From an uncultured Lactobacillales bacterium (GTDB lineage: Bacteria; Pseudomonadota; Alphaproteobacteria; CAYJES01), in assembly GCA_964369365.1 (NCBI GenBank), contig CAYJES010000001.1, positions 30,967-94,966 on the forward strand: DNA of 64,000 nt. The letters are read 5' to 3'. The first letter of the stretch is position 1, and each line of letters opens with the position of its first letter. The notes beneath the pieces were generated by a model. That model did not search any database and had not been told where the DNA came from. It worked only from the letters and a program-made list of their open reading frames with translations. The translations under genes were made by a program, and so were the position numbers. Shown piece by piece: positions 1,146 to 32,600 of this stretch.

Positions 1146-1221
1146 CCATTTTTCTCCATTATTTTATACGTCGCATTTTGACGTATATTGATGATATATT
1201 TTATATATTAACAACAAAACA

Positions 1222-3273
1222 ATGGAGAAAATTATGACCGAAGAAAAAAGAATTGCCCTATACTATGCATCCATTTTATATAACACCAAAATGTCTAAAT
1301 CTTATCGTGAAAACTTCATAGATTGGGCTACAGAACATGCACCCGAGATATTTGATGAAAAACTGTATACCAACGACGTAAATGATGAATACTTTGTTGA
1401 CGACGATGATGATGAAAAGGCATTAATTAGCAAACATAATAAGTCTCATAAAAACGAAAAAAATCTTGGATTATTATTAAAAGCTGTAAAAGCGCCTAAA
1501 CGCCTTTCATGTACAGGGAAAACTTACAAAAAAGCTAATATGATTTGCGATGCATTGGGGATACATGATATTGATCGCGAAATTATAAGGCTATCTGTTT
1601 TTATAAAAGAATTTGAAACAATAAGAGACCTAATTAAAAGTGTTGAAAAAAAAGATTTTGACATTAATTTAATTTCTTGGCTATTGCAAAAACCTATTAA
1701 CTCTGTAAAACAAGCTCTAGGCGACCAATCTCCTTTAATAAAAAAAGGTTTATTAGAGTTTTCATATCGCAGTAATTACTCAAAAACTAATATATTAAAT
1801 AAAGTTCTTATATCTCCTTGCAGAAACTATAATGAAATACGGCGAGTTGTATTAGATGAAAAAGCTAAAACCAAACTTTCAAAAAAAGACTTCCAACACG
1901 TTGAAAACGAACTTAATTTTTTAATTAAAATACTAACTAAATGTTTTGAAAAAAAAGAATTAGGCGTAAATATAATGCTTTATGGCCCTCCTGGCACAGG
2001 AAAAACAGAATTTTCAAAAGTGTTATGTAAAGAATTAAAAGCAGATCTGTATATGCTTTCCGAAAATGCAGATGATCTTAAAAACAAAAGCAGATTGACC
2101 GAATTACGGCTTGCTCAGTCTTTAACAAAAGATGATAAAAACACAGTATTGCTTCTTGATGAAGCTGAAGATGTTTTCTATGGTTCTGATACCGCTTCTA
2201 AAATGTATGTTAATCGCGCACTTGAAAAAAACCAAACCCCTGTTATTTGGATAAGCAATAACATAAGGTGGATGGATCCCGCGTATTTACGTAGATATAC
2301 TTATGCAATAGAGTTTCCAGAACCACCCGAAAGCGTACGTGAAAGTTTATGGAAAAATATCGCAAAGAAAAATAAATACAAACTATCCATTAAAAAAGCA
2401 AAAGAATATGCAAAAAAATATGAAATTGCGCCTTCTTTTATCAACAGAGCGATACGGTCAGCAGCACTTTTAGATGACGAAAGTGCTATTGATAAAACAA
2501 TCCAAAGCCTTAAGAAAGCTATTACAGGAAAAGATTTTACTAAAAACGAAACTGATAAAAATAAAAAAAAATATAATGGCGAATATAACACAAACTTTAA
2601 TACTGACATACTTAACACCGATATTGATTTAAAAAAACTTGCAATGAGCCTTAAAAATAAAGAAACAAAACGATTTTCTTTGTGTCTTTTTGGGGCTGCA
2701 GGAACTGGCAAATCTGAATATGCAAGGTACCTTGCAAATGAATTGAAATTGCCAATAATCCACAAACGAGCATCAGACTTAATCAGCAAATATGTCGGTG
2801 AAACAGAACAAAATATTGCAGAAGTATTTAAACAAGCAAAAGAAAAGAAATCACTATTAATCTTTGATGAAGCAGATAGTTTTTTACAAGACAGAAGCCT
2901 TGCTCAGAGAACGTGGGAGGTTTCCAGCGTAAACGAGATGCTAACATGGATGGAAAATCATCCATACCCATTTATTTGCACCACAAATTTAATGGAAAGT
3001 TTGGATAAAGCGAGCTTGCGACGTTTTACATTCAAGGTAAAATACGACTATTTGAAATCTGAACAAGTTCAAAAAGCTTTCAAACACTTCTTTAATAAAG
3101 ATGCAAATCTTGGTGAACTTATAAACCTGGGTCATCTTGCTCCTGGAGATTTTATGGTAGTGAAAAATAAAGCAGAGATTTTAGAAATAGAAAATCGGTT
3201 CGACCTTATCGAAATGCTACAAAGCGAACAAGAAGCGAAAGGCATAATCACAAAACCTAAAATCGGCTTTTAA
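1222..3273 (+). CDS. Tandem AAA+ ATPase: ~230-aa N-terminal domain of unknown type followed by two classical AAA modules. The start is more likely ATG at 1234, which has GGAG 8 nt upstream.
   Basis: Walker A GPPGTGKT and GAAGTGKS. Walker B LLLDEAED and LLIFDEAD. Sensor-1 and Arg-finger segments ISNN...LRRYTY and CTTN...LRRFTF. Confidence 0.7.
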   Translation: MEKIMTEEKRIALYYASILYNTKMSKSYRENFIDWATEHAPEIFDEKLYTNDVNDEYFVDDDDDEKALISKHNKSHKNEKNLGLLLKAVKAPKRLSCTGKTYKKANMICDALGIHDIDREIIRLSVFIKEFETIRDLIKSVEKKDFDINLISWLLQKPINSVKQALGDQSPLIKKGLLEFSYRSNYSKTNILNKVLISPCRNYNEIRRVVLDEKAKTKLSKKDFQHVENELNFLIKILTKCFEKKELGVNIMLYGPPGTGKTEFSKVLCKELKADLYMLSENADDLKNKSRLTELRLAQSLTKDDKNTVLLLDEAEDVFYGSDTASKMYVNRALEKNQTPVIWISNNIRWMDPAYLRRYTYAIEFPEPPESVRESLWKNIAKKNKYKLSIKKAKEYAKKYEIAPSFINRAIRSAALLDDESAIDKTIQSLKKAITGKDFTKNETDKNKKKYNGEYNTNFNTDILNTDIDLKKLAMSLKNKETKRFSLCLFGAAGTGKSEYARYLANELKLPIIHKRASDLISKYVGETEQNIAEVFKQAKEKKSLLIFDEADSFLQDRSLAQRTWEVSSVNEMLTWMENHPYPFICTTNLMESLDKASLRRFTFKVKYDYLKSEQVQKAFKHFFNKDANLGELINLGHLAPGDFMVVKNKAEILEIENRFDLIEMLQSEQEAKGIITKPKIGF

Positions 3274-4341: not shown

Positions 4342-5310
4342 TTAATATTCAGGCAAGCTTTCCCAGAAATTTGTTGGCTTTATTACCTTTACCTTATCGC
4401 CCCAAGTGTATAGATGCCAAGACATTTCACGTCTACCTCCTGCCCTAAATTTCACCAAAAGCGATCCGTCTTTTTTGCGTTTTACTTTTTGAGTGGGGTG
4501 GAAGACATAACGTTCTGCCTCATCTGCCGCTTCTTTTGCAAATAACCATTCAACATCAAAAGGTTCTTCTTGATAGGTCCCAAAAGAATTTTCAACATAT
4601 TTTTCAAGTGAAAATTTTGCATCTTCTTCAAAGGTTTCTTTTAAAATCGTTACCTTTTTAATATTTCCAAGAATATAATAGCGCAGCTCACCTTTTGACC
4701 TTCCATCAACATATTTTGCTAACAAATAATGATTCCTATCTCCATAAACAAAACCCATAGGTATAAGTTTAGTATAATTAATTTTCCCGCTAGATTGATT
4801 AAAATAATCAATTTTGATTTGTCGGAAAGAGTGCAATGCGTCTCTTAACACACTAACGATAGTGTTGTCCATTTTTATCTTAGGACCAGGGCGTAACGCA
4901 AGCCCTTCTGATTTCAAAATATCCTCGACATCCATTGCAACGCTAGATTTTGGCTTTATCAATGATAAGAATTTATTTCTTGCTGTTTCTAAATTCTTTG
5001 CTTTTTCATCTAGGTTATTTTTTTGCAAATGTTTAATCGCACTATTAATTGCTGCAAGCTCACTTTTTGTCAGACTTGCCAACCCTGTCAATTTATTGGA
5101 AGTTAATCTGAAATGCTTTTTATTATCATCTCCATATTCTTCTAAAAAATCTGCAGCGAAATAGTTTGCGATTGCATTTCGCATACGCTCTGCAGTTCTT
5201 CTGCCTACACCAAATCTTTCTTGAATGTCATCTAAGGTTATTCCTTCGCTATTGCCTTGCATCATAAACGCAAGGTCAAACATATCCAACATCTTCCCAT
5301 AATTTTCCAT
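4342..5310 (-). CDS. HTH + WYL-domain transcriptional regulator (BrxR/CapW-like). The track's TTG at 5340 is probably an over-extension; ATG at 5310 has GGAGG 10 nt upstream.
   Basis: N-terminal winged-HTH-like segment (ITLDDIQERFGVGRRTAERMRNAI). Central WYL-like segment (KLIPMGFVYGDRNHYLLAKYVDG). Size ~320 aa. Confidence 0.55.
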   Translation of the reverse strand: MENYGKMLDMFDLAFMMQGNSEGITLDDIQERFGVGRRTAERMRNAIANYFAADFLEEYGDDNKKHFRLTSNKLTGLASLTKSELAAINSAIKHLQKNNLDEKAKNLETARNKFLSLIKPKSSVAMDVEDILKSEGLALRPGPKIKMDNTIVSVLRDALHSFRQIKIDYFNQSSGKINYTKLIPMGFVYGDRNHYLLAKYVDGRSKGELRYYILGNIKKVTILKETFEEDAKFSLEKYVENSFGTYQEEPFDVEWLFAKEAADEAERYVFHPTQKVKRKKDGSLLVKFRAGGRREMSWHLYTWGDKVKVIKPTNFWESLPEY

Positions 5311-5314
5311 ATTG

Positions 5315-6454
5315 CTAAACCTCCATAATTTTTTTAGCAATTTGCATTATTACTTCATCAATTTCATTTATCTTTTTTATTAAAGTTTCTTTTGATATCA
5401 AAAAATCATTTTTTTTACTTGTCAATAAAACATCACCTATTTTGGTTGTTTGTGCTGTTTTTGATATTTTCAGCTTTTCTCTTGATTTTTTGAACCCTTC
5501 AACTTTTTCCAATTCACATTTTATTTTATTAATCATGTCCAATCGAACCTTAGATGATCTGAACTTTTCATATTTCACCCTTATATCTATTTTATTCTTT
5601 TTCGAAGTTTCCTCTTTGTCGTATCCAAGAACTGAGTAATATAAAAACATTCTGTTTGATATATCAAACCCTTTTATTTTTAAAGCATTATCTTTTTTCC
5701 ATCCGTCATAGAGAAAATACCATTTATTTTGTTTATCATTTACACATATATCATTAAAAAAACCTTGCCATGTCCATTTAGACCAATTCTTCAAATCATT
5801 ACATTCTTTATACTCATCTGTTTTTTTATTAACATATGTCCAATAATTAAAAAATTCATCAATTATCCACATATCTTTATTAACATTACTTTCTAATGAA
5901 TTTAAAAAATCCACTCTATCAAAAAGGGTGTATTTCTCCTTATCTAACATACCCTTAAAATCTTTATTATTTAAAAAATTTCCTGTTTTTGTAACGATGC
6001 CAAAAATATCATTTTCTTTAAAACCTTTTGCTTCTACAATTTTTCTATACTTAGATAATTGAGATTCCTTGTCGTTGTTATTTTTTTTATTTTTCGCTTT
6101 TACTTCTTTTTCTTTTTTGCTTTTTTTTATATTGCTATCATGAATATCGGAATCTGTTTTATCTTCTATAATAAGGGCTTTTTTTATATTATTATTTTTA
6201 TCAACCTGCTCAAAATAAACTAACACATCGATATTGTCTTTTTGAACTTTCACCTCTGTTATTTTATAATCCCCTTCTATTCCAGCCTTTTCAAATAATG
6301 CATCGGCGAATGATTTTCCTGCTTTATGTAAATTATCATCTTTTTTTTCATTTTCTTCTCGTGACCATTCAAGGAGCCAGGCGATAAAGGCATCTTGCGA
6401 CAACTCTTTCGTTGCAAATTGAAATAAATTTGGTTTTTGAAGTTGATTTGTCAT
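5315..6454 (-). CDS. Hypothetical protein with a putative N-terminal PD-(D/E)XK nuclease core and a Lys/Asn-rich C-terminal half.
   Basis: AAGGAG RBS. Motifs DVLVYFE ... LIIEDKTD resemble the D...(D/E)xK catalytic core. This is inference. Confidence 0.4.
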   Translation of the reverse strand: MTNQLQKPNLFQFATKELSQDAFIAWLLEWSREENEKKDDNLHKAGKSFADALFEKAGIEGDYKITEVKVQKDNIDVLVYFEQVDKNNNIKKALIIEDKTDSDIHDSNIKKSKKEKEVKAKNKKNNNDKESQLSKYRKIVEAKGFKENDIFGIVTKTGNFLNNKDFKGMLDKEKYTLFDRVDFLNSLESNVNKDMWIIDEFFNYWTYVNKKTDEYKECNDLKNWSKWTWQGFFNDICVNDKQNKWYFLYDGWKKDNALKIKGFDISNRMFLYYSVLGYDKEETSKKNKIDIRVKYEKFRSSKVRLDMINKIKCELEKVEGFKKSREKLKISKTAQTTKIGDVLLTSKKNDFLISKETLIKKINEIDEVIMQIAKKIMEV

Positions 6455-6505
6455 TATACATCTCCTTTTTATTATTTTAAATATTAACCTTATGACGCTT
6501 CTATA

Positions 6506-7522
6506 TCAAATATTGTCATTATTATCATTACTCTGTGAAGAGCAAAAACATACATCATTATGTTTTATATTATATTTTAATCCGATTAAGTCTTCTAAGA
6601 ATTCTTTTTTTTCTTGCTTAAACTTATTAAATACATCTTCTATTGATACATGAAAACAATTCTTACCTTCCATTTGCTTGCTACTATCTCGAGAAAATAG
6701 TATATATATTTTATCATCTGATTTTGGTGACCCATTAAAAATATTCGTATAACCTGAATTACCATCAAATTTAACTTGAGCGTACAAATAACAACCGTCA
6801 GAAAATCGGCCTATTATATCATAAATTGCTAAACTTTTGCCTACTCTTACATTACTGTATTCATATTTTTTATCTTTAAACCAATTTAACCGCAAGTACT
6901 CTTCGCACATTTGCTCTACCGCTTTATAATGCATTAAATCTATGGATAAATCTATTTGCTCTCCTTTATAAATAAGAGGAATTATTGTATTATATATAGG
7001 AGATTTTGGTCTACATATTGTATTGTAAGGAGGCCTGGCTGATAATAAAGCAGGATAATCTTCATAAAAAATTTCCTTTACGTTTTTTATAGTTAGATAT
7101 TTCATTGGAAACATATTATCTTCAACGTCTTTTATTTCGTCGCTATCTATCTCCCCTATAAGAATTTTTTTTACTTGAACATCATCTACTAAAAGTTCAT
7201 ATTCGGCTACTATAAGAATATTATTTTTGTTTTTTATTATATTTTCAAAAGTTTTTTGGATATTTAACATATTTTTTAATGATTTTTCATTTGCATTTTC
7301 AAGCAATTTAGGTTCATTATCTTTATAATATTTTTTAGCTAAGTTTATCAAAGAATCATTATCATTATCATACTTTTTATAATCTTTATATGAAACAGGA
7401 AAATGGCCAAAACATATTCTTTTTTTATCAAATGCTCTTTGTGCGAAATTATTTTTTCTTTCATCTTCCGTTTTACAATATTGTAAAAAATTATGCCTTA
7501 TAAAATAAACTTCTTTTTCCAT
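6506..7522 (-). CDS. Hypothetical protein (~338 aa). Start is probably ATG at 7522 (AAGGAG 8 nt upstream) rather than the track start at 7555.
   Basis: ORF lies in an operon with the flanking nuclease-like genes, with 10-nt and 52-nt gaps. No confident domain assignment. Confidence 0.45.
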   Translation of the reverse strand: MEKEVYFIRHNFLQYCKTEDERKNNFAQRAFDKKRICFGHFPVSYKDYKKYDNDNDSLINLAKKYYKDNEPKLLENANEKSLKNMLNIQKTFENIIKNKNNILIVAEYELLVDDVQVKKILIGEIDSDEIKDVEDNMFPMKYLTIKNVKEIFYEDYPALLSARPPYNTICRPKSPIYNTIIPLIYKGEQIDLSIDLMHYKAVEQMCEEYLRLNWFKDKKYEYSNVRVGKSLAIYDIIGRFSDGCYLYAQVKFDGNSGYTNIFNGSPKSDDKIYILFSRDSSKQMEGKNCFHVSIEDVFNKFKQEKKEFLEDLIGLKYNIKHNDVCFCSSQSNDNNDNI

Positions 7523-7532
7523 ATTTTTCTCC

Positions 7533-8984
7533 TTATATTTTACTATACAACACATCTATCAACTTTGCCATAGCAAGGGTGTCTTGGTGGCAGTATTGGG
7601 TTAGACCTGAGAACAGAGTTTGTTCTTCTTCCTCTGATAGTTTGTTTTGCATAAATGATAGGTATCTATCCATTGCTTCGCCGCCGTTTGCTATTTCCAT
7701 ATCGTCATAGCTTAGGTCGGTGAAAGCTGGCAACACATATTTGATAGAGTTTGAATTTTGTTGTTTTGGATTGTATAAAACCCTGTCTCTAAATGGCTTC
7801 AACAAATCAATCATACGGGCGTTAATTGATAAAATATCAGAGTTTAAATCCGGAAATAGATTTGCAAGTTCTTTATTCCTAGTTTCTTCAAATGCTTGAT
7901 TATATACGATAACAGATCCTTTTTTACCGCAACTATCAACCAATTTTTCGGCAAACAATCTGCGAGGGTCTGATTTTTCTTTATGAAGAAACTCGATATG
8001 TTCCAGCGTCCCTCCCTTTTCTTTTTGAATATGGAGCGAAAATTGAAACGGGATTTGGTTGTAAGTTCCGCTGTTATCAAACAAAGGAATTGCTGGTTGG
8101 ATTGTTTCATAATCAAGATAATATAATGGATATTCCAACGTATCCAAAAATTCTTTTATTCTGTCTTTGTCGACGTATTCTTTGTTATCAATGAACGCTT
8201 GCACAGCCACCTTTGCCGCATCAGAACATTCTGGCAAAATATCAGGCGTGATTTCTGCGCTTTTCCTTTGGATGTATAGCTTGTCAGCCTTTGGATTTCG
8301 AATAACATCAAAAAGCGAAAATTCTGGGATATCTTTACCACAATAATGATAAAATTGACAGCCTTTGCACGCCTTATGAAGTTCTATTTTTGGTTCTGAT
8401 TTTCCTTTTTGGATTTTATAAAATTCTAAAGCTTTTTTTTGCACGTCGTGATACTCATATTCCACTTGTTCAGATACATCCGTTAAGGTAAATAACTGTT
8501 TAACATCAATCTTGCCATCTTTCTTATATTCCTTGTTAAAATGCAAAACATAACAGCTTTTTATTGGATAACCAGCTTGCATAAACACATAACGTTGAAA
8601 GGCCAAATCGACATAATGTTCTGATTTTGCTTCGTTAGTAGCCTTTATTTCAATCAAATCCCAGCCGTTAGAGTTCCTTTGCATTACGTCAATTCGGCAG
8701 TATGCGCCCCAAGTGGTTTTTGCAAAAGCCTCAAATAAAATATCGTGCTTTTTGCTTTGTTCTTGAGTTATCAAACAACCGCCTGTGATGTTCCAATAGT
8801 CTGCTTCCACCATATAACCGCCATCAAAGAAATCACGTGCAAGGTCTTGAGTTTCATTACCCTTATCAAAAATGGCTTGCAATTCTTGTGGGGTAGGAGG
8901 AATCAAATCTTTGCGATTTTTCTTTAACCACAAGGCCTTAGCACAATCCAGCGCCATCATATAGTCAGATTTTGATAAAAACAT
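7533..8984 (-). CDS. Fusion protein: N-terminal Cas4/RecB-like PD-(D/E)XK nuclease with Cys cluster, plus C-terminal DnaQ-like DEDD 3'-5' exonuclease. Possibly DUF2779-like.
   Basis: AGGAGG RBS 6 nt upstream. Nuclease motifs WDLIEIK (D..ExK) and QRYV (QxxxY-like). Cys cluster CKGCQFYHYC plus N-terminal Cys. Exonuclease motifs YLDYETI (Exo I, DxE), VYNQAFEE (Exo II, NxxF[DE]) and YCHQDTLAMAKL (Exo III, HxxD). Confidence 0.5.
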   Translation of the reverse strand: MFLSKSDYMMALDCAKALWLKKNRKDLIPPTPQELQAIFDKGNETQDLARDFFDGGYMVEADYWNITGGCLITQEQSKKHDILFEAFAKTTWGAYCRIDVMQRNSNGWDLIEIKATNEAKSEHYVDLAFQRYVFMQAGYPIKSCYVLHFNKEYKKDGKIDVKQLFTLTDVSEQVEYEYHDVQKKALEFYKIQKGKSEPKIELHKACKGCQFYHYCGKDIPEFSLFDVIRNPKADKLYIQRKSAEITPDILPECSDAAKVAVQAFIDNKEYVDKDRIKEFLDTLEYPLYYLDYETIQPAIPLFDNSGTYNQIPFQFSLHIQKEKGGTLEHIEFLHKEKSDPRRLFAEKLVDSCGKKGSVIVYNQAFEETRNKELANLFPDLNSDILSINARMIDLLKPFRDRVLYNPKQQNSNSIKYVLPAFTDLSYDDMEIANGGEAMDRYLSFMQNKLSEEEEQTLFSGLTQYCHQDTLAMAKLIDVLYSKI

Positions 8985-9028
8985 AATCCCTCCTAATTTA
9001 TATTTTAGATTAACAGCCTATCATTTAT

Positions 9029-9868
9029 TTAGCAATTGTTTAATTCCATAACAAAGTAAAAATTGAAATAATTACTTTTCACTACATAAACTTTTAACTT
9101 GTTTTTCCATTCTTCTGTAAAATTCTTATCTTTTTTCTTTTTACCTTTTTTATAAAAATCTCGCCATACTGAAAAATATGGATCTTCAATTTCTATTACA
9201 TTATCAATATAATTAAACGGCTTTAAGTTTTTGGAAAAAACATCTTGTATATTAAAATAGTTTTTCTTTCTTATTGATACATATTTTTTACATATAATGT
9301 GTACTTGATACTTCTCAGCCATTTCTTTTAATTTTTTAACTATATACTCATCAATATTTTTCTTTTTTTTGTTACGCTCTATTAAAAAATATTCTTCTAT
9401 ATAAACCACTTCAGACATTGATGCATTTTTTATAATCTTTTCAATCTGTTTAAAAGAATATTCAAAATTGTGATAAGTTTCTATTGGATAATGTTTATAC
9501 TTTTTGACTTCTTTTTCAAGTTCATTAATATCTAAATTTTTGATTTTTTTGGCATCGCAAAAATCGCTTTTTAAAATATTTTTGTAATGAGAGAAGTTAT
9601 TATCTCCCGCTATCCATAACAAATTTCCATCTTCATTTTGGCTCAACTTATCAGCAATTCCTAACATAATACTTTTATCAAATTTCTGTACGATTGAATT
9701 TCTAAGGGTTGTATTGACAATAAATGTCACTTCGCCCTTACGAAAACCCTGAATAGCATTATCAATTTCTTTTATTCCACAACAGGCGCCTTGCAAACCT
9801 GATTTAATTTTTTTAGCTTCTTCTATGAAATTATAAATACCTTGCTGCAATGTCATATTTTTATACAT
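9029..9868 (-). CDS. Hypothetical protein (279 aa), possibly a degenerate RecA/DnaB-C-terminal-like pseudo-ATPase.
   Basis: AAGGAGG RBS 6 nt upstream. SGLQGACCGIKEIDNAIQGFRKGEVTFIVNTT resembles the DnaB/KaiC strand-P-loop region but lacks GK[ST]. Confidence 0.3.
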   Translation of the reverse strand: MYKNMTLQQGIYNFIEEAKKIKSGLQGACCGIKEIDNAIQGFRKGEVTFIVNTTLRNSIVQKFDKSIMLGIADKLSQNEDGNLLWIAGDNNFSHYKNILKSDFCDAKKIKNLDINELEKEVKKYKHYPIETYHNFEYSFKQIEKIIKNASMSEVVYIEEYFLIERNKKKKNIDEYIVKKLKEMAEKYQVHIICKKYVSIRKKNYFNIQDVFSKNLKPFNYIDNVIEIEDPYFSVWRDFYKKGKKKKDKNFTEEWKNKLKVYVVKSNYFNFYFVMELNNC

Positions 9869-9937
9869 TTTAACCTCCTTATTAAATATCTATAAAAAGG
9901 ATAAAACTTATTTCCGACAAAGTATGTCGTATTACTT

Positions 9938-10447
9938 TTATTGAAAAGTTGTAATGTGCTCCGGATATGGCTTTATATTGTTCAGTTTATCTGCAAAAAA
10001 TGCGGGATATGCCTCATATTCTCTTAACTTTTCAATCGGCAACCATTCCATTCTTTCGGTTATTTCGCCGTTGAAAGTTTTGCTTTCTTTGGTTATTTCA
10101 ACTCTTTTACCTTTTGGCTTCATCAAAAAGAAAAAAGTTATTTCGTGGCATGCAAGCCCACTTAACATCCCGTCTTTTCGTTTGAAAAAGTTTTCTTGAA
10201 CAAATGCAAGCCTGTCTATTTCATAATATATGCCTACCTCCTCAGCCACTTCACGCAGAACGGCACTCTCTGCACTTTCACCTATTTCAACTGCCCCACC
10301 AATGGAATAATAATAATTTTCAGAATCATTCGTTGCAAAAAGAACATGATTTTCTTCGATTATAATTGCCGCTGCCCGCAACCTAAACCGCTTATTATCC
10401 GCTGTCTTATAACATACATCTTTAACTTCACTATTTACTATATTCAT
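9938..10447 (-). CDS. NUDIX hydrolase.
   Basis: Nudix box GGAVEIGESAESAVLREVAEEVGI (Gx5Ex7REUxEExGU). Confidence 0.75.
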   Translation of the reverse strand: MNIVNSEVKDVCYKTADNKRFRLRAAAIIIEENHVLFATNDSENYYYSIGGAVEIGESAESAVLREVAEEVGIYYEIDRLAFVQENFFKRKDGMLSGLACHEITFFFLMKPKGKRVEITKESKTFNGEITERMEWLPIEKLREYEAYPAFFADKLNNIKPYPEHITTFQ

Positions 10448-10466
10448 TTTATTTTTCTTTTATTTC

Positions 10467-10910
10467 CTATTCATAAATGCAGAAATGTTGATTTTTTGCT
10501 ATTAAATCAATTGCCTTTTTAACGTGGGGCAAAGTTTGTTCAGGCAGGTTATTTATATCAAAAAAAACAATTTCTTCGCATTTTTCTGGTTCGTTATTTT
10601 GAATTTGTCCTGAGAATTTTGTAGCTTTGATAAAAATATCAATTATATCGGTTGGATCGCCTTTATATGGCGCATTTGGACGTTGCATTGTTAACACAAC
10701 TTGCAAATCTTCTGGGGTTATGTCTATTCCTGCCTCTTCTTTTGCCTCTCTGATTATTGCATTTATAACTGTTTCGCCTTTTTCAGTGTGCCCTGCAATC
10801 ATGCTGTATTTACCAGCCAAAATTTCAGATTTACTTTTACTTAATAACACCTTTTCATCTTGGATTAATACTAGATACGCACCTATTAATGGTCTTTGAT
10901 TTCCTGTCAT
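10467..10910 (-). CDS. NUDIX hydrolase (second, adjacent paralogue).
   Basis: Nudix box AGHTEKGETVINAIIREAKEEAGI. Confidence 0.75.
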   Translation of the reverse strand: MTGNQRPLIGAYLVLIQDEKVLLSKSKSEILAGKYSMIAGHTEKGETVINAIIREAKEEAGIDITPEDLQVVLTMQRPNAPYKGDPTDIIDIFIKATKFSGQIQNNEPEKCEEIVFFDINNLPEQTLPHVKKAIDLIAKNQHFCIYE

Positions 10911-10912
10911 AA

Positions 10913-11587
10913 CTAATCTTTCCTTATTAAAATGTGATAGTGATAACTTTGACTTAGCTCGCCTTCTACTTCATAATATCTGCAAACGTGTTCAAGGTCA
11001 ACTATCTGAAATTCTTTGAATAACTCGCCTATTAAATCATAATCAGCATAAAAATGCGGAACTTTATATTCTGGACCTTGATCCATTCTAAGTTTAGTAT
11101 TTTCATCAACCATAGGCCAATCTTTTTTAAATCCCCACGTGTCCTTTGACCCTAAAGTTAGGTAACATTCCCCACCAGATTTAAGAATTCTATACAATTC
11201 TTTTATAATCTGCTTTACGCCATTTGTGTCGGTGTGAGAGATTACGTTTCTGCATAAAATACAGTCCATAGAATTATCTTGATATGGCAGATTTAACATA
11301 TCTCCTATGGCAAAATCGACAATAAGATTTTCCGTTTCTGCCCATTCTTTTGTTCTGGCTATGGCATTTTCACTTATGTCAAATGCAAACACATTAAAAC
11401 CATTTTTTGCAAATAAAATAGAATGCCTGCCTAAACCACAACCCAAGTCCAAAATTTCTTTTTTATGTTGAGAAATCCAACGACTAAGCAAATAAAAACT
11501 TTCCGGAGCAGGATTTTTCCAAACATTTTCATTGTCCCCAGAAACTATTTCCCAATTCCAACCAACCGATTTTATTATTTCATTCAT
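10913..11587 (-). CDS. Class I SAM-dependent methyltransferase.
   Basis: Motif I ILDLGCGLGRHS. Acidic motif II FAFDISE. Confidence 0.7.
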   Translation of the reverse strand: MNEIIKSVGWNWEIVSGDNENVWKNPAPESFYLLSRWISQHKKEILDLGCGLGRHSILFAKNGFNVFAFDISENAIARTKEWAETENLIVDFAIGDMLNLPYQDNSMDCILCRNVISHTDTNGVKQIIKELYRILKSGGECYLTLGSKDTWGFKKDWPMVDENTKLRMDQGPEYKVPHFYADYDLIGELFKEFQIVDLEHVCRYYEVEGELSQSYHYHILIRKD

Positions 11588-12084
11588 TTTGCACCTATCA
11601 CTTTATTTATATCTTTATCATTTTTTAAAATTATAACTTTATTAAAGTATTTTTCTTTTAAGGTATTAATATTCTCTTTTCCTTTTTTAAGATTTTCAAA
11701 ATTCCATTTTATTAGATTTATAATACTTTTGAATGTTTCGCCTTTACTTGCTAAAACACCTAACTTTCGTAGCAAAAATCTTTTTAAAATTCTAAAATTC
11801 CTAATATGAATATTTACATCAAGAACATAAATTTTATCAGCATTTTCAAAAGATTCATAAAGCCATGAAAAATATATACCTTCAATAATATAGTTCGAAT
11901 TTTGCATAAAGTCTTTTAATAATTTATGGCGTTCTTCTTTGTCTCTTTTTTGTCCGTAACCTTTTACATTATTATCCCAAAATATATCGTCAAGTTCAAG
12001 TAGAGGAATATTATGCTGTGACACAAGCTGTTTTGCAACGGTTGTTTTTCCACTGCCACTTTCGCCGATTATATGAATTTTCAT
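11584..12084 (-). CDS. P-loop NTPase / small kinase (adenylate-kinase or topology-modulation-like).
   Basis: Walker A IIGESGSGKTT at the N-terminus. Size 166 aa. Confidence 0.6.
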   Translation of the reverse strand: MKIHIIGESGSGKTTVAKQLVSQHNIPLLELDDIFWDNNVKGYGQKRDKEERHKLLKDFMQNSNYIIEGIYFSWLYESFENADKIYVLDVNIHIRNFRILKRFLLRKLGVLASKGETFKSIINLIKWNFENLKKGKENINTLKEKYFNKVIILKNDKDINKVIGAK

Positions 12085-12111
12085 ATATTACTGTCCTTTA
12101 AACTTTGCATT

Positions 12112-12639
12112 TTAATAATTTTCTATATGCGTCAAGTAAGTTGGAGGAATTATTCCATTTTTTAACACAATAAGATAATACGGAAGAAAGTAAAATCTTC
12201 TACCTTTTTCATCATTACAAACCGACCAATCAATAGAAGACAAATCAATATCATTAATATCTTCTAGCTTAATTAAAATTTCATCTCCGTTATAATTTTC
12301 TTCTACTGTATTTATATCAGCGGGAGGAGAATAATAAATATCTTCCAACAATCCATCCTTTTCAAGAGATAAAATATCAATAGATAGTAAATCAGAATTT
12401 TGAATAAACTCTTTAAGAGATAAACTTTCATCATGCCATTGAACGGGCTCAGTTAAAACGCGAACAGATTTAGACCTACCTTTAAAACTTTCCTCCATCC
12501 AATTAACAATTTCTAAATGAGTTTTAGCATTTGCACGTTTTTTATAATATCCTAATTCTGCATTTGGATTTTTAGCAAAAGATAAAATACCTTCTTCTAA
12601 AACTTTACTTCCTTTGGGCACATAATGATAAATTTTCAT
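12112..12639 (-). CDS. Hypothetical protein (175 aa).
   Basis: ORF lies in the co-directional gene array. No motif recognised. Confidence 0.4.
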   Translation of the reverse strand: MKIYHYVPKGSKVLEEGILSFAKNPNAELGYYKKRANAKTHLEIVNWMEESFKGRSKSVRVLTEPVQWHDESLSLKEFIQNSDLLSIDILSLEKDGLLEDIYYSPPADINTVEENYNGDEILIKLEDINDIDLSSIDWSVCNDEKGRRFYFLPYYLIVLKNGIIPPTYLTHIENY

Positions 12640-12706
12640 GATAACCTCTCCTTACTAAAATATTATAGAGGAAATTATGTTAATAAGCTATTTAAACAGC
12701 AAAACT

Positions 12707-13348
12707 CTATTTCTTAGATGGCATAGGATCGTGATAGCCTGCTATTTCGCCATTGCCTATGCGCCATAAATACAAACTTGCCACAGACGCATAAGGAGAA
12801 TATCTGTTTTTATATTTTTCAAATAGCTGCTTAGTGATTTTCTTATGACGATATAACATTCTTAAACCCCTTTGAATTATCAAATCATCATAGGCTATTA
12901 TATTCATTCGGTTCATTGAAAAAATCATTAACATCTGGGCTGTCCATTTGCCTATTCCTTTTAGGTTTGATAGTTTTTCACAAACCGCTTCATCGTCTAA
13001 ATCAAATAGAGATTGCAAATCCAAGTTGCCTGCAACAATTTCATTGGAAACATTTTTAATGTAATCAACTTTGCGATACGTTAACCCGCAAGATTGCAAT
13101 TCGTCATCAGAAAATTTTAATATGTTTAGGGGAGTAATTTCACCCACTTTATCCCTAAACCGTTCATAGATGGTAACGTGAGCTTTCCTGGAAATCTGTT
13201 GACCTATTATTGCATTAATCAGCGAATCAAATAAATCTGGATAGGTTTCTCTTTTTATGAAACCAATTTTATCAATAGCCTCGCCTAAACGCTTATCTTT
13301 TGACTTTAAATGGTTTAGGTGGCTTTCATCATATTCTAAAAAATTCAT
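12707..13348 (-). CDS. HhH-GPD DNA glycosylase (AlkA/3-methyladenine glycosylase II-like).
   Basis: HhH-GPD region LKGIGKWTAQMLMIFSMNRMNIIAYDDLIIQRGL with the catalytic Asp. Confidence 0.65.
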   Translation of the reverse strand: MNFLEYDESHLNHLKSKDKRLGEAIDKIGFIKRETYPDLFDSLINAIIGQQISRKAHVTIYERFRDKVGEITPLNILKFSDDELQSCGLTYRKVDYIKNVSNEIVAGNLDLQSLFDLDDEAVCEKLSNLKGIGKWTAQMLMIFSMNRMNIIAYDDLIIQRGLRMLYRHKKITKQLFEKYKNRYSPYASVASLYLWRIGNGEIAGYHDPMPSKK

Positions 13349-22597: not shown

Positions 22598-23764
22598 TTA
22601 AAGCCAACCTGTTTTTACAATATTAGCACCGAATTTATTTTCAAGCGCATCTATTGCTTTACTTAATTCATCATCTTTTGGTTTTTGATTTTCTTCACTA
22701 AACAAACTTTGCTGAACTTCTGCATTAAAAGAAATGTCGTCTAAAGAAATTCCGCAGCTGCGATAAATTTTATTTGTTTTAAATAACTGATTAAACAACT
22801 TTGTTACAACTTCTTTTACTTCTTGTTCTGAATTTGTTTTTTTAGGTAATCTTTCTTTTTTTACAACCATTTCAAAATCTTTATACCTTAGCATTACGCC
22901 AACAACGCTAGTGTACCCATTCCATGCGCGCAATTTACGACATGCTTGTTGAATATGATAATTAAGCGAAGTGCTTATAAAATATTTATCCTGAGTAAAT
23001 TCTGAAAAAGCTTGAGAACTTTGAATAGATTTAGGAGGGATAGGGTCTTTTTCTATTTTATTAATCAAAATTCCTGAAAGTTCATTTTTAATTTGCGCAC
23101 CGCTTATTCCTAATGCTTTTTTGATGTCTATATCGTTCGCACTCATAAAATCTGAAATAGTTAAAATCTTTGCTTGTTGTAATTGTTTATGATGTTGTTT
23201 GCCAATACCGGAAACATGGTTAATAGGCAAATGTCCCAATTTTTCCACTAATTCTTGTGGTTTTATTTCGTAAATTCCGCCAGATGATTTTGCTTGCTCG
23301 CTTGCCAATTTGGCCAGTAGCTTTGTCGAAGAAATGCCTATTGAAACAGAAATTTTCAACTTGTCATAAATTTCTTGCTTAATATCTTTCCCTATTTCTG
23401 CATAGCTTTTTTTATATACTTTATCCAAAGTAGATAAATCTATGTATGCTTCATCTATTGATGCAATCTCTACTACTGGGCTGAAATTTTTAACCAGTTC
23501 CATAACTTGCGCTGAAATTTCTTTATACCTTTGCATTCGTGAAGAAATAAAAACGACGTTATCATATTTATCCTTTATCTTAAAATAAGGGTCGCACATT
23601 TTTATGCCTAAAGCTTTTACTTCCTTAGATCTTGCTAGAACTATACCCCTGTCTGTTATTCTGCTCATCACACAGACAGGTTTGCCCATTAATTCATGAT
23701 TGTCCGCTTGTTCACACGATGCAAAAAAAGAATCGCAATCAATTAACCCTATTACATTTTCCAT
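22598..23764 (-). CDS. dinB: DNA polymerase IV (Y-family).
   Basis: N-terminal IDCDSFFASCE. Later SIDEAYIDL catalytic motifs. Confidence 0.8.
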   Translation of the reverse strand: MENVIGLIDCDSFFASCEQADNHELMGKPVCVMSRITDRGIVLARSKEVKALGIKMCDPYFKIKDKYDNVVFISSRMQRYKEISAQVMELVKNFSPVVEIASIDEAYIDLSTLDKVYKKSYAEIGKDIKQEIYDKLKISVSIGISSTKLLAKLASEQAKSSGGIYEIKPQELVEKLGHLPINHVSGIGKQHHKQLQQAKILTISDFMSANDIDIKKALGISGAQIKNELSGILINKIEKDPIPPKSIQSSQAFSEFTQDKYFISTSLNYHIQQACRKLRAWNGYTSVVGVMLRYKDFEMVVKKERLPKKTNSEQEVKEVVTKLFNQLFKTNKIYRSCGISLDDISFNAEVQQSLFSEENQKPKDDELSKAIDALENKFGANIVKTGWL

Positions 23765-29638: not shown

Positions 29639-32600
29639 TATCTTACTTCTATCCTTTTGCTGTATTTAAACAACACTACTATTTCATTATCGATATAATC
29701 CCTATACAATGCTCCGAAATTGAAAGATGAGCTTTCGTCAATTTCATGATTATATGACATTTGGAAATTAGTTTCATTAGGTGTTTTCATATCTATTTCA
29801 TAGTTATCATAATAAATATTTCCATCAATATCCCTAGAATTAGCCAATGACAAATCGAATTTACCAGAATTTATTTTAACCGGTTGTGATATTAAAAATG
29901 AAATATTACTAGTTTGCCCATGCACTCTGTCAAAATTATAGCTTAGTCCCACTGCATATGAGCTTGAATAAAAGTCGCTGATATTTTTTATCAAAGAATT
30001 GTCAGATTCATTCACAACAGTAAAACCTATATTAACAGCACCTATTAAAGACAGCTTATCATTAAAAAATTTCATGTCTGTTTGAAAGCTTGTCATATAT
30101 GTTGTGTTATTTTCCCCTATTCCAAAAGCACCATTCCAAGAATTTCCGAACAGAGTTTCATTTTCATTAATTATACCAAGTTCTATTTTAGTATTAATAT
30201 TTTCATTAACGTCATAACTTATACCTGCCATAAATGCTGTGGCATTTCCTATATATTCGCCTTCTGAAAAACTGTCGTATTCATCATATTCCATAGTGTA
30301 ATTTTGTTGAATAAATCCAACGTTAAAATACGAATTTTGCGAAATTTTAAATGATGAGTTAAATCCATAATTATCATCACTATCATTTTTGAAATAAGGA
30401 TTTAATGGATTGTAATCATTAGAATTAGCCAATGTGAAATTATTGTAAAAATTCGATTTTTCATTCACAAATGTATTGTATGGGTTATTACCGTAATAAA
30501 AATTAAATCCATATTCTTTTTTGCTGTCTTGATATGACAATTCAATTTCTTCCGAATCTTTTATCTCTTCGCTTGTTGATTTGCTGTAATATAAATTAAA
30601 GCTTTCATCCTTGCCAAACGATATTGTTTTATGGGTTTTTGAAGCAAAATTTTCTAAAACTTTTTTTGCATCTATTCTGTTGGTATCTGTTTGGATCAAA
30701 TTGTTTAATTTTATATCATAAGTACGGTTATATTCATCAAAAACTACCATCTTCAAATCTTTGCTTTTGATATTATAAGCGATTGAAGAATCAAGTTTCA
30801 TAGTACTTACATTGATACTTTGTTTTGCAGCAGTTATTTTACTATCTAACCCTACTGATAAAGCGTCTGATGGTCTTGTTGCTCTTTCCAAATCCAACAT
30901 TCCCCATCCATAAATTTCATCTACACCTTCTTCGCCTAAATCTCTTGCTGTTGAAAATAATAGTTGAGTTATCTCTGCGCCACTAAGGTACGGGAAAGCT
31001 CCTTCTATAACTGCTACTGCGCCACTGACTATTGCTGCTGCACCTGATGTTCCTACAACAGCGCTATAACCATTTACTTCAGATGGTACAATACTGTATC
31101 CTGTCGTTAATGTCCAAGTACCAGGAGCAGAAATACAATATTCCATTGCCACACCACATTTATTGCTTGAGGCATGCAATTCTCCTTCATCAACATCATA
31201 ATTCACAACAGTTACAAAATTTTTGTAATATCCTGTACTGCTATCATAATACACATCTTGATAATGTAATGGAATCGCATTATTCATACTAGGTTGTGAT
31301 AACCCTTCATTTCCTGCTGCGAACACAAATATGACATCATTATTAATAACGGCTTGATTCATTTTATCTATATAATTACTGGTATAATTTGTATTTGGAT
31401 TATAGTTACTAGTAGTATCAGTATAATAAGAATTTGCACCTGAACCAACCAGTACATCTCCGAATGCATACTTTAATACATTTTGTGCTTGTGATCCAAA
31501 TTGCCCAGGAGTTGAAGCATTTAAACCAATTTCTGTTTGAGTGTCTTCTGTTGCAACCAGACCATAGCTGTTATTTATTACTGATGCTCCTTTTAATGCA
31601 GCATCTGCAAATGCTTCACCTATATAATAATTAGGTACAAAACTCTCGTCGCTTAATGATATTTTATATGGGATAATTTCAGCATCAGGAGCAACCCCAA
31701 TTATTCCTGTATTGTTGTCTGCAGCAACCATAAGTCCTGCCATATTAGTTCCGTGGGCAACATTTGTAGTTGTTGCATCTTTGCCATCTCCATATTCTCT
31801 ATTAGGGCTTGGATTACCATCTGAGCCTTGTGATTCTCCACAAATAGCAAGACCAGTTGCTACTTCACAAAAATTAAAAGCTACGTTAGTATTTCTTAAA
31901 TCATCTGATCTGTTATCAATTAGCTCTACATGCGATATTTCAACACCCGTATCCATAATAGCAATTTTTATAGCATCACCTTCACCAAAAGAACCTGAAC
32001 CATCTGTACCTAAATAATTAGGAGAAGTGCTGCCATCTGATTTTTTACCAGTAAAACCCCTTGCATGCGCATATGCCATTCTCATTAAATCAAAATCGTC
32101 TTTGTTTGAAAAAGTTAAACTACCGCTTGTTGCAGATCTTATATATTCACTATCATTTAGTACAGCGTCTAAATCTGTTTGCCTTACAAAACCAACTTCA
32201 TCATAATTTTTATCAATAGATGAAGTTCCACCGGAAGACCCTCCACCGCTTGAACCACCGCTATCGCTGCCGCCTCCACCACCTGCAGCTATTGCAACTC
32301 CACCACCTACTAGTGCAACCGCACCTACTGTTAAGCCTACTTTTCCTATAGAAAACCCTCCAGAAGTAGCAGAGGCTATAGTTGTAGATGAAATTGGCGT
32401 TGATGCTTGAGCTTGGTATGAGTTTATTTGTTTTATCATTGCTGATTGTGAACAATTATTTGGATTAAATCTTGAAAAAAGATGTCGTATTCTTGCATCT
32501 CTACTTAGCATTCCGGCGCAATAAACGAAATCTCTGCTTGCATCTCTTACTAATGGTCTTGCTCCATTTGAAAGCAAAATATTTGTTATTTCATAATTTT

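Follow-up and report, generated by a model that had tools for sequence, protein, structure and literature searches.

A DUF2779-family two-nuclease protein and its candidate DriD-type regulation in an alphaproteobacterial contig

Introduction

The 64,000-nucleotide stretch of DNA considered here, referred to throughout as the window (positions 30,967 to 94,966 of contig CAYJES010000001.1, assembly GCA_964369365.1, from an uncultured bacterium deposited as Lactobacillales and placed by GTDB in the alphaproteobacterial lineage CAYJES01), contains a gene of the DUF2779 family (PF11074), the product of which is, in one polypeptide of 483 amino acids (aa), a Cas4/RecB-type PD-(D/E)XK nuclease and a DEDDy-type 3'-5' exonuclease akin to the proofreading domains of polymerases. 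The gene lies in a cluster of five, the last of which encodes a WYL-domain regulator related to DriD, and upstream of the cluster stands a DriD-type box at a fixed distance from a -10-like hexamer. Domain identity, catalytic conservation, DriD orthology, the box with its fixed geometry and the recurrent linkage of WYL and DUF2779 genes were all computed here, and the explanation that we favour, with moderate confidence, is of a DriD-box-driven nuclease, induced by single-stranded DNA (ssDNA), which would process DNA ends.

The DUF2779 family comprises thousands of clusters at 50% identity, is without experimental characterisation in the literature searched, and has one member that is quasi-essential in JCVI-syn3.0. 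What is new here is that a WYL gene stands within 5 kb of DUF2779 in about a third of the sampled loci, and that in the clade of the window this gene encodes a DriD orthologue accompanied by a box at a fixed promoter position; DriD-box regulation of DUF2779 was not reported in the searched literature. The link would give the family a testable regulatory context, namely induction by ssDNA after DNA damage or the entry of foreign DNA, together with candidate partners (a DnaB_C-like protein, a PDDEXK_4 nuclease and a double AAA+, or 2xAAA, ATPase), and it is by such a DriD-type regulon link that a large uncharacterised family becomes experimentally approachable. The window protein is ordinary as architecture and modestly interesting for its regulation.

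Domain architecture and catalytic residues

The gene and its domains are arranged as follows.

7533..8984, minus strand: DUF2779-family two-nuclease protein, 483 aa, ATG start (open reading frame listing and Pfam)
8325..8984, minus strand: Cas4/RecB-like PD-(D/E)XK nuclease domain, aa 1-220; catalytic D99, E112, K114 and Q130; cysteine cluster C14 + C206-x2-C209-x5-C215
8133..8324, minus strand: helical linker between the nuclease domains, aa 221-284 (helices 232-280 in the secondary structure of the AlphaFold2 model; limits inferred from Pfam envelopes)
7536..8132, minus strand: DEDDy-type 3'-5' exonuclease domain (DUF2779 core), aa 285-483; Exo I D291/E293; Exo II YNxxFE, E366; Exo III Y464-x3-D468; invariant D393

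An AGGAGG ribosome-binding site is located just 5' of the ATG. An earlier note on this DNA, drawn up from the letters alone, had given the same 483-aa reading frame and had taken it for a fusion of a Cas4-like nuclease with a DnaQ-like DEDD exonuclease, a reading now borne out by Pfam, by the AlphaFold2 model and by residue conservation; all the motifs that it quoted are found in the translation. The Pfam matches are to DUF2779 (PF11074) at residues 288-413 (E=2.8e-44, 150.8 bits against a cut-off of 23.3, model positions 1-126 of 126), to Cas_Cas4 (PF01930) at residues 52-215 (E=9e-8, 32.8 bits against 22.7) and to RNase_H_2 (PF13482) at residues 325-480 (E=2.7e-6, 27.9 bits against 22). PADLOC likewise returned weak Cas4 and Cas4b domain matches (best E=2.1e-9), and the NCBIfam match, to the UU173 family of Mollicutes, was partial and stayed below threshold.

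The conservation figures come from 138 library representatives, pairwise no more than 50% identical. In the nuclease half D99 is kept in all 138, E112 and K114 in 136 and Q130 in 137, while in the exonuclease half the figures are 137 for D291, E293 and E366 and 136 for Y464 and D468, so that the key residues of the three Exo motifs named in the earlier note (YLDYETI, VYNQAFEE and YCHQDT) are retained almost throughout. Two of its finer assignments require amendment. WDLIEIK had been read as the D..ExK motif, and this holds for E112 and K114; the catalytic aspartate, however, is D99, within CRIDV, and not D109 of WDL, which is kept in just 66 of 138. Similarly QRYV, proposed as QxxxY-like, has the conserved Q130, whereas Y132 occurs in only 72 of 138. 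The four-cysteine cluster stands as proposed (C14 130/138, C206 129/138, C209 130/138, C215 129/138), and its placing is that of a putative Fe-S cluster site. Altogether 40 positions are conserved at 93% or more across the family, and all of them are present in the window protein, whose numbering defines them. An extra aspartate, D393 (codon 7806-7808), is conserved in 136 of the 138 representatives. The window protein is an ordinary and apparently fully functional member of its family.

Comparison of folds was needed because searches of the PDB by sequence gave nothing significant: with the single sequence no relevant match was obtained, and with a profile of 106 sequences only an Exo II segment of Pol I type and the cysteine motif of Cas4 came up, both below threshold. 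The AlphaFold2 model, built on 33 homologues, has a mean predicted local distance difference test score (pLDDT) of 95 and a predicted template modelling score (pTM) of 0.87. Its N-terminal half is closest to the Cas4-Cas1 structure 7mi4 (comparison score 13.5), MGME1 (11.8) and Dna2 (11.3), followed by type I-C Cas4 8d3l (11.3), SSO0001 4ic1 (11.0) and Pcal_0546 (9.7); Foldseek, independently, ranked Cas4 8d3l first (E=6e-5). The RecB-like fold with its D and ExK residues and the RNase H-like fold of the DEDD domain were thus both recovered, and the two checks put forward in the earlier note, structure prediction and conservation of the motifs in homologues (129-138 of 138 for the catalytic and cysteine residues), both came out in favour of the fusion.

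In the structural comparison the exonuclease half came out nearest to the proofreading domains of DNA polymerases and to two DNA exonucleases, MrfB and ExoI, and these matches bear on the nature of the substrate. One could suppose RNA to be the substrate of the DEDD domain, or of the whole protein, in the manner of RNase T/D or of an oligoribonuclease, and a DUF2779 mutant of Mycoplasma bovis did come from a study centred on nanoRNase functions. The structural matches argue against this, as does Exo III, whose Yx3D (DEDDy) form is usual in the exonucleases of DNA polymerases and of the WRN type; the partner domain falls in a group specific for DNA (Cas4, RecB, MGME1 and Dna2), and the genomic context is centred on DNA. 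We therefore regard action on RNA as very unlikely.

A large and already described family

The earlier note considered the architecture unusual, a view which does not survive the size of the family. When 50%-identity representatives were searched exhaustively, 7,619 clusters came out at E<=1e-3 and 2,240 at E<=1e-30, and a word-indexed search gave 2,927 relatives; most of the best 120 are 480-500 aa long and aligned end to end, and most of the 150 best library representatives align with the window protein over its full length. Homologues occur among Alphaproteobacteria, Rickettsiales and Micavibrio metagenome-assembled genomes. A scan of species-representative genomes gave only two distant loci. 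Of 32 matching plasmid records, 30 are annotated 'DUF2779 domain-containing protein' and the other two lack annotation there. No DUF2779 match was found in 50,697 phage genomes, and a pattern scan of 2.9 million IMG/VR contigs confirmed only 16 relatives; a phage recombination exonuclease was rejected as an identity on these two counts.

The fusion itself is already known, and the window protein is one more member. In the classification of Majorek et al. (2014) PF11074 stands among the predicted 3'-5' exonucleases, its fusion to a PD-(D/E)XK-like DUF83 domain being noted there (PMC3985635), and a 2026 paper attributes the same fusion architecture to MMSYN1_0389 of JCVI-syn3.0, a quasi-essential protein with the same catalytic residues, a His-to-Tyr change and two of the four cysteines kept (PMC13621843). 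The Cas4-like N-terminal half, the DEDD(y) C-terminal half and the D/E/K and D/E/E/Y/D residues are accordingly shared with the described members (MMSYN1_0389, UU173 of Ureaplasma and RefSeq entries), whereas the four cysteines, of which the Mycoplasma protein has two, are all retained in the window protein and in most of the family. The window protein is also shorter than the Mollicutes forms, the 650-position UU173 model being matched at 382-637 only (73 bits against a cut-off of 225).

Outside the family several likenesses have to be considered. The RecB family nuclease of the COG2251/TM0106 type (DUF83 + PF13482) also combines a Cas4-like domain with a DEDD exonuclease (PMC3985635), and the window protein passes the PF13482 cut-off; that family is nevertheless classed separately (F.13 vs F.17 in PMC3985635), often carries tandem AAA domains, and none of its NCBIfam models matched the window protein. 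Family-A and -B polymerase DEDDy domains, MrfB (8UN9), ExoI and the epsilon subunit of Pol III resemble the C-terminal half, which differs in having no polymerase domain beside it, in a glutamate rather than an aspartate in Exo II, and in the extra invariant D393. AddAB and RecBCD likewise bring a RecB-type nuclease domain (Fe-S-bearing in AddB) to DNA ends and make the ssDNA that WYL regulators sense, but the window protein and its operon are without a helicase, and the second nuclease is of DEDD type, not a second RecB-type domain. Pfam and NCBIfam detected no helicase domain in the 483-aa protein or in the five-gene cluster, and an AddAB-like helicase-nuclease was rejected on the absence of a superfamily 1 (SF1) helicase domain from both.

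The CRISPR-associated Cas4 proteins (SSO0001 4IC1, Pcal_0546 4R5Q, 8D3L and 7MI4) share with the N-terminal half the fold, the D...ExK triad, the conserved glutamine and the pattern of one N-terminal and three C-terminal cysteines (CxxCx5C). That the protein trims prespacers during spacer acquisition, as a Cas4 of this type would, has nonetheless next to no probability: the match to Cas4 is weak (E about 1e-7) and the family clusters apart as PF11074, the tyrosine of QxxxY is not conserved, and an additional exonuclease domain is present. The identity was rejected: the 64-kb window has no CRISPR-like repeat array, and neither cas1 nor cas2 was seen among the neighbours annotated there or in those related loci that were examined.

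The DriD-type regulator and its box

Three features of the window define the proposed regulation.

4342..5310, minus strand: fifth gene of the cluster, 322 aa, a DriD-type transcription regulator of winged helix-turn-helix (wHTH)-WYL-WCX form (Pfam WYL and WCX; the 322-aa form is on record)
9915..9929, no strand assigned: DriD-type box CGACA-N5-TGTCG, in the context aATACGACatactttGTCGgaa, 46 base pairs (bp) upstream of the first cluster gene
9898..9903, minus strand: -10-like hexamer TATCCT, exactly 11 nucleotides (nt) downstream of the box

The 322-aa protein matches the DriD chains 8tp8/9pfq of Caulobacter over its full length (phmmer against the PDB, E=2e-52, with nothing else relevant), and the recognition-helix segment GVGRRTAERMR is identical in the two; the RWHVR motif of the BrxR/CapW repressor group was not found in it. 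By these similarities it is a clear orthologue of DriD. That a WYL regulator ends the operon, as the earlier note held, is therefore correct and incomplete, since the regulator can be named more closely and a DriD box stands upstream of the cluster. [quoted passage not shown]

The box was first spotted by eye when upstream regions were compared and was tested afterwards. The pattern CGWCAN5TGWCG has a single match in the 64-kb window, at 9915-9929, where 0.04 were expected, and the site fits both ATACGAC-N7-GTCG and the published DriD consensus, ATACGAC(X)7GTCGTAT, the general form of which, CGXC(X)7GXCG with an AT-rich spacer, is present in 68 of 69 alphaproteobacterial driD promoters (PMC10853764). 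A generic scan for sigma-70 promoters gave no information in DNA as AT-rich as this (35 sites against 35 expected). Across the loci compared, 10 of 15 box sites are followed at 11 nt (+12..+17) by TAnnnT (background 0.024, p=1.5e-13; 0-3 sites at other offsets), a statistic which overstates independence, as several of the 15 sites come from related contigs (L003, L010 in our numbering of loci). From the fixed 11-nt spacing it follows that the box stands where a -35 element would be; in cryo-electron microscopy of DriD-activated promoters the box occupies the -35 place at a fixed distance from the -10 (PMC13004042).

The loci sampled were 89 from assemblies and metagenomes, together with 8 plasmid regions and 16 IMG/VR contigs. 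The WYL-positive loci, 258 kb in all, contain 12 copies of the strict box, and the WYL-negative loci, 739 kb in all, contain 2 (p=5e-6). In L003, L004, L007, L010, L038 and L091 the box lies upstream of DUF2779 or of an operon that includes it, standing before DUF2779 itself in L007 and L038 and before short genes leading into DUF2779 in L003, L004 and L010; DnaB_C genes, WYL operons and 2xAAA ATPase genes are also preceded by boxes, and on a plasmid of Rhodoferax (Betaproteobacteria) two boxes lie upstream of an ATPase-DUF2779-WYL operon. A relaxed pattern, YGNCA-N5-TGNCR, proved too permissive for statistics and was used just to note TGNCA variants in L005. On this human-gut contig, whose DUF2779 protein is 57% identical to that of the window, the variant palindrome TGNCA-N5-TGNCA occurs at 3075, 4131, 4215, 9959, 11212 and 11445, all six sites being intergenic and situated around WYL, DnaB_C, McrBC-DUF2779 and several small downstream genes; the regulon in L005 may span the whole island.

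Linkage of WYL and DUF2779 genes

Of 90 loci in all, 17 have a WYL gene; the count is 13 among the 40 with good flanks and 10 among the 24 with a full +/-4.5 kb, and the independent samples give comparable counts (3 of 8 plasmids, 5 of 16 IMG/VR contigs). Distance provided an internal control: 18 WYL genes were counted at up to 5 kb from DUF2779, against none at 5-10 kb (p=5e-4). The two genes may be divergent, convergent or co-directional, with 0-5 genes between them, which is the pattern of a lasting link between a regulator and its target. Within the closest clade (52-62% identity) WYL, DnaB_C-like and DUF2779 genes stay together as a trio in L003, L005, L007, L010 and the window, and four successive genes of an Aliarcobacter plasmid are DnaB_C, a PD-(D/E)XK nuclease, DUF2779 and WYL. 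Among the immediate neighbours WYL, ResIII, PDDEXK_4, McrBC, Mrr_cat and HsdR are met most often, and AAA+ ATPases directly upstream of DUF2779 recur among the related loci.

A simpler account would deny regulatory meaning to both the WYL gene and the palindrome. The protein would then be a constitutive housekeeping nuclease of repair or recombination, for example a helicase-independent substitute for AddAB or RecJ in the resection of ends, and the palindrome the terminator of the upstream Nudix gene, 9 nt after whose stop codon it lies and as a weak example of which it was also flagged. Such a role would accord with a family which is very wide and of uniform length (~480-500 aa), with the quasi-essentiality of DUF2779 in JCVI-syn3.0, with the listing of a DUF2779 transposon mutant in a Mycoplasma bovis cell-culture survival study, and with the absence of the WYL gene from two thirds of loci. 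Against it, the hairpin has 5 base pairs and no clear T-run, and the same 15-nt motif occurs in L007 at 7915-7929, in a divergent intergenic region where no gene ends, as well as twice upstream of the Rhodoferax operon. The motif moreover fits the experimentally defined DriD site, a -10-like hexamer fixed at 11 nt would be unexpected for a terminator, and WYL genes are enriched within 5 kb of DUF2779. Taken together these points leave the housekeeping account distinctly unlikely.

Proposed mechanism

The published work on DriD describes how ssDNA is bound by the WYL domain, after which DriD binds its box and activates genes that include the nuclease genes recJ and bapE (PMC9186387); WYL repressors likewise sense ssDNA (PMC11662680), and Cas4 proteins are metal-dependent 5'-3' ssDNA exonucleases (PMC5704561). 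By analogy with these systems, from which we infer both the activation by ssDNA and the polarity of each nuclease, the DriD-box-driven system that we favour would operate as follows. The breakage of DNA, or the entry of foreign DNA, would lead to a build-up of ssDNA, which would be bound by the WYL domain of the DriD homologue; the regulator would then bind the box and recruit RNA polymerase, such that the operon, and probably also the nearby 2xAAA ATPase gene, would be turned on. The DUF2779 enzyme would in turn work on DNA ends, the Cas4-like domain cutting single strands from the 5' side while 3' ends would be trimmed by the DEDDy domain, and broken or foreign linear DNA would be resected or destroyed by an enzyme without a helicase of its own. 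The earlier reading of the protein as a DNA-degrading or DNA-processing effector is in part supported, DriD orthology and the box saying more about function.

Several observations weigh against this mechanism. At the level of the enzyme, Exo II reads YNxxFE, with Glu366 (codon 7887-7889) where an aspartate is usual, and no biochemical study of any DUF2779 member was found in the searched literature. At the level of the promoter, the strict box is limited to the close clade and to L091, L038 and L047, the other WYL-linked loci being without it; its 15 promoter sites are in part related, its palindrome in the window doubles as a weak terminator-like hairpin behind the Nudix gene, and activation rather than repression by the regulator would be expected from orthology and promoter geometry alone. 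At the level of the locus, two thirds of the sampled DUF2779 loci are without a nearby WYL gene, and 132 immediate neighbours of DUF2779 match 121 Pfam families, so that there is no fixed partner, WYL being the commonest nonetheless. The DriD link may accordingly hold for some clades only.

The available evidence does not decide whether the enzyme would repair or resect the DNA of the cell itself or destroy incoming DNA. A role in defence is favoured by the variable nuclease- and restriction-like cargo of the loci and by their defence-rich neighbourhoods; a role in repair is favoured by quasi-essentiality in a minimal Mycoplasma, by the activator type of the regulator and by the many housekeeping contexts.

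The variable genes of the cluster

The earlier note had the DUF2779 gene heading a three-gene operon; it is instead the second of five co-directional, tightly spaced genes, inside which no minus-strand terminator-like site was predicted. Besides the regulator the cluster consists of the following genes.

9029..9868, minus strand: first gene, 279 aa, a degenerate DnaB C-terminal/RecA-like protein whose Walker A motif is lost (NCBIfam phage_DnaB, BLASTP)
7533..8984, minus strand: second gene, DUF2779, 483 aa
6506..7522, minus strand: third gene, 338 aa, a near-orphan with, tentatively, an N-terminal EVE/YTH-like (PUA-like) domain and a C-terminal PD-(D/E)XK-like motif
5315..6454, minus strand: fourth gene, 379 aa, a divergent PDDEXK_4 (PF14281) nuclease, assigned through its homologues

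The 279-aa protein matches the NCBIfam phage_DnaB model at 4e-5, far under the model cut-off, and the DnaB_C/AAA_25 protein of L005 by BLASTP at E=4e-7, with ARPAMGKTSF of the latter standing opposite VNTTL--RNSIV. DnaB_C/AAA_25 genes adjoin DUF2779 and WYL in L003, L005, L007, L010 and L090. In the first four of these loci the accompanying DnaB_C/AAA_25 genes are intact and have boxes of their own. For the 338-aa protein two homologues are available, and its C-terminal half has an invariant D235...Q249-V-K251 motif; its AlphaFold model is moderately confident (pLDDT 68) and the nuclease assignment comes from the motif alone. Its layout is, tentatively, that of a modification-dependent restriction enzyme. 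The 379-aa protein has no Pfam match of its own, whereas most of its 148 homologues carry PF14281. Genes for PDDEXK_4 or 'PD-(D/E)XK nuclease family' proteins adjoin DUF2779 in L008, L090 and L094; BLASTP of the 379-aa protein against the 'PD-(D/E)XK nuclease' neighbour on the Aliarcobacter plasmid gave no detectable similarity.

None of the 89 related loci gave a relative of the three non-conserved genes when these were searched by jackhmmer, and the five-gene operon as such is therefore not conserved. Within positions 4400-10000 of the window the GC content is mosaic, being 35-36% in DUF2779 and WYL and 26-27% in the genes for the 279-, 338- and 379-aa proteins, with a window average of ~32%, which suggests exchangeable cargo within a conserved frame.

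Such cargo invites the view that the cluster is an anti-phage or anti-plasmid defence cassette, with DUF2779, PDDEXK_4, the EVE/YTH-like protein and the 2xAAA ATPase as effectors that would degrade invading DNA, and with expression gated by the WYL regulator in the way of BrxR in BREX and CapW in CBASS. In mechanism this overlaps with the explanation that we prefer; it is the biological role that differs. The neighbourhoods of homologues are indeed rich in defence genes: type I restriction-modification genes lie near DUF2779 (a methylase in 13 loci, HsdR in 7 and HsdS in 6), McrBC is directly upstream of it in L005, GmrSD is found together with a restriction endonuclease in L009, and PLD with a helicase near DUF2779 in plasmid loci. 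The low GC content of the variable genes relative to DUF2779 and WYL, the resemblance of the third gene to readers of modified bases and the absence of DUF2779 from the phage genomes searched all point the same way, and for WYL regulators co-localisation with defence islands is on record (PMC9122601). On the other side, PADLOC v2 matched no model of a described or candidate defence component beyond generic Cas4 (the other cluster genes gave WYL matches only) and has no system-level model with the 483-aa protein, and the regulator is of the DriD activator type, without the RWHVR motif of defence-linked repressors. Moreover the minimal Mycoplasma in which MMSYN1_0389 is quasi-essential was grown without phages, most DUF2779 loci lie among unrelated housekeeping genes, and the window is flanked by ordinary chromosomal genes with no integrase. 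A dedicated defence cassette is consequently a rather unlikely reading.

A further conjecture, to which we would give little credence, is that DUF2779 and the WYL regulator constitute a feed-forward pair. The nuclease, with its two polarities, would process the ends of broken or invading DNA into short ssDNA bound by the WYL domain and would hence be both the target of a DriD-type response and the generator of its signal, while the pair, often with the DnaB_C-like gene, would frame a slot for variable cargo such as McrBC, PDDEXK_4, the EVE/YTH-like enzyme or the 2xAAA ATPase.

Upstream of the cluster, on the minus strand at 9938-13348, are genes for two Nudix hydrolases, an S-adenosylmethionine (SAM) methyltransferase, a small P-loop kinase-like protein, a 175-aa protein without assignment and an HhH-GPD DNA glycosylase, and at 22598-23764 there is a gene for a DinB-type polymerase (IMS). 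No strict box was found in an intergenic position at the genes of 9938-13348 or at the IMS gene.

A second box and the double AAA+ ATPase

A second site of the general DriD form precedes an ATPase gene near the start of the window.

1169..1183, no strand assigned: second box CGTCGCATTTTGACG, a perfect CGXC(X)7GXCG match, 38 bp upstream of the 2xAAA gene
1195-1200: -10-like TATATT, at the same spacing from the second box
1222..3273, plus strand: double AAA+ ATPase, 683 aa (Pfam AAA x2)

The ATPase probably belongs to the same regulon. With the ATP-binding protein encoded directly upstream of DUF2779-WYL on the Rhodoferax plasmid it shares 34% identity (E=3e-100), and its homologues adjoin DUF2779 in L008, L026 and L036; a Helicobacter AAA ATPase has only the P-loop in common with it. 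These associations suggest a conserved pairing of the ATPase with the nuclease.

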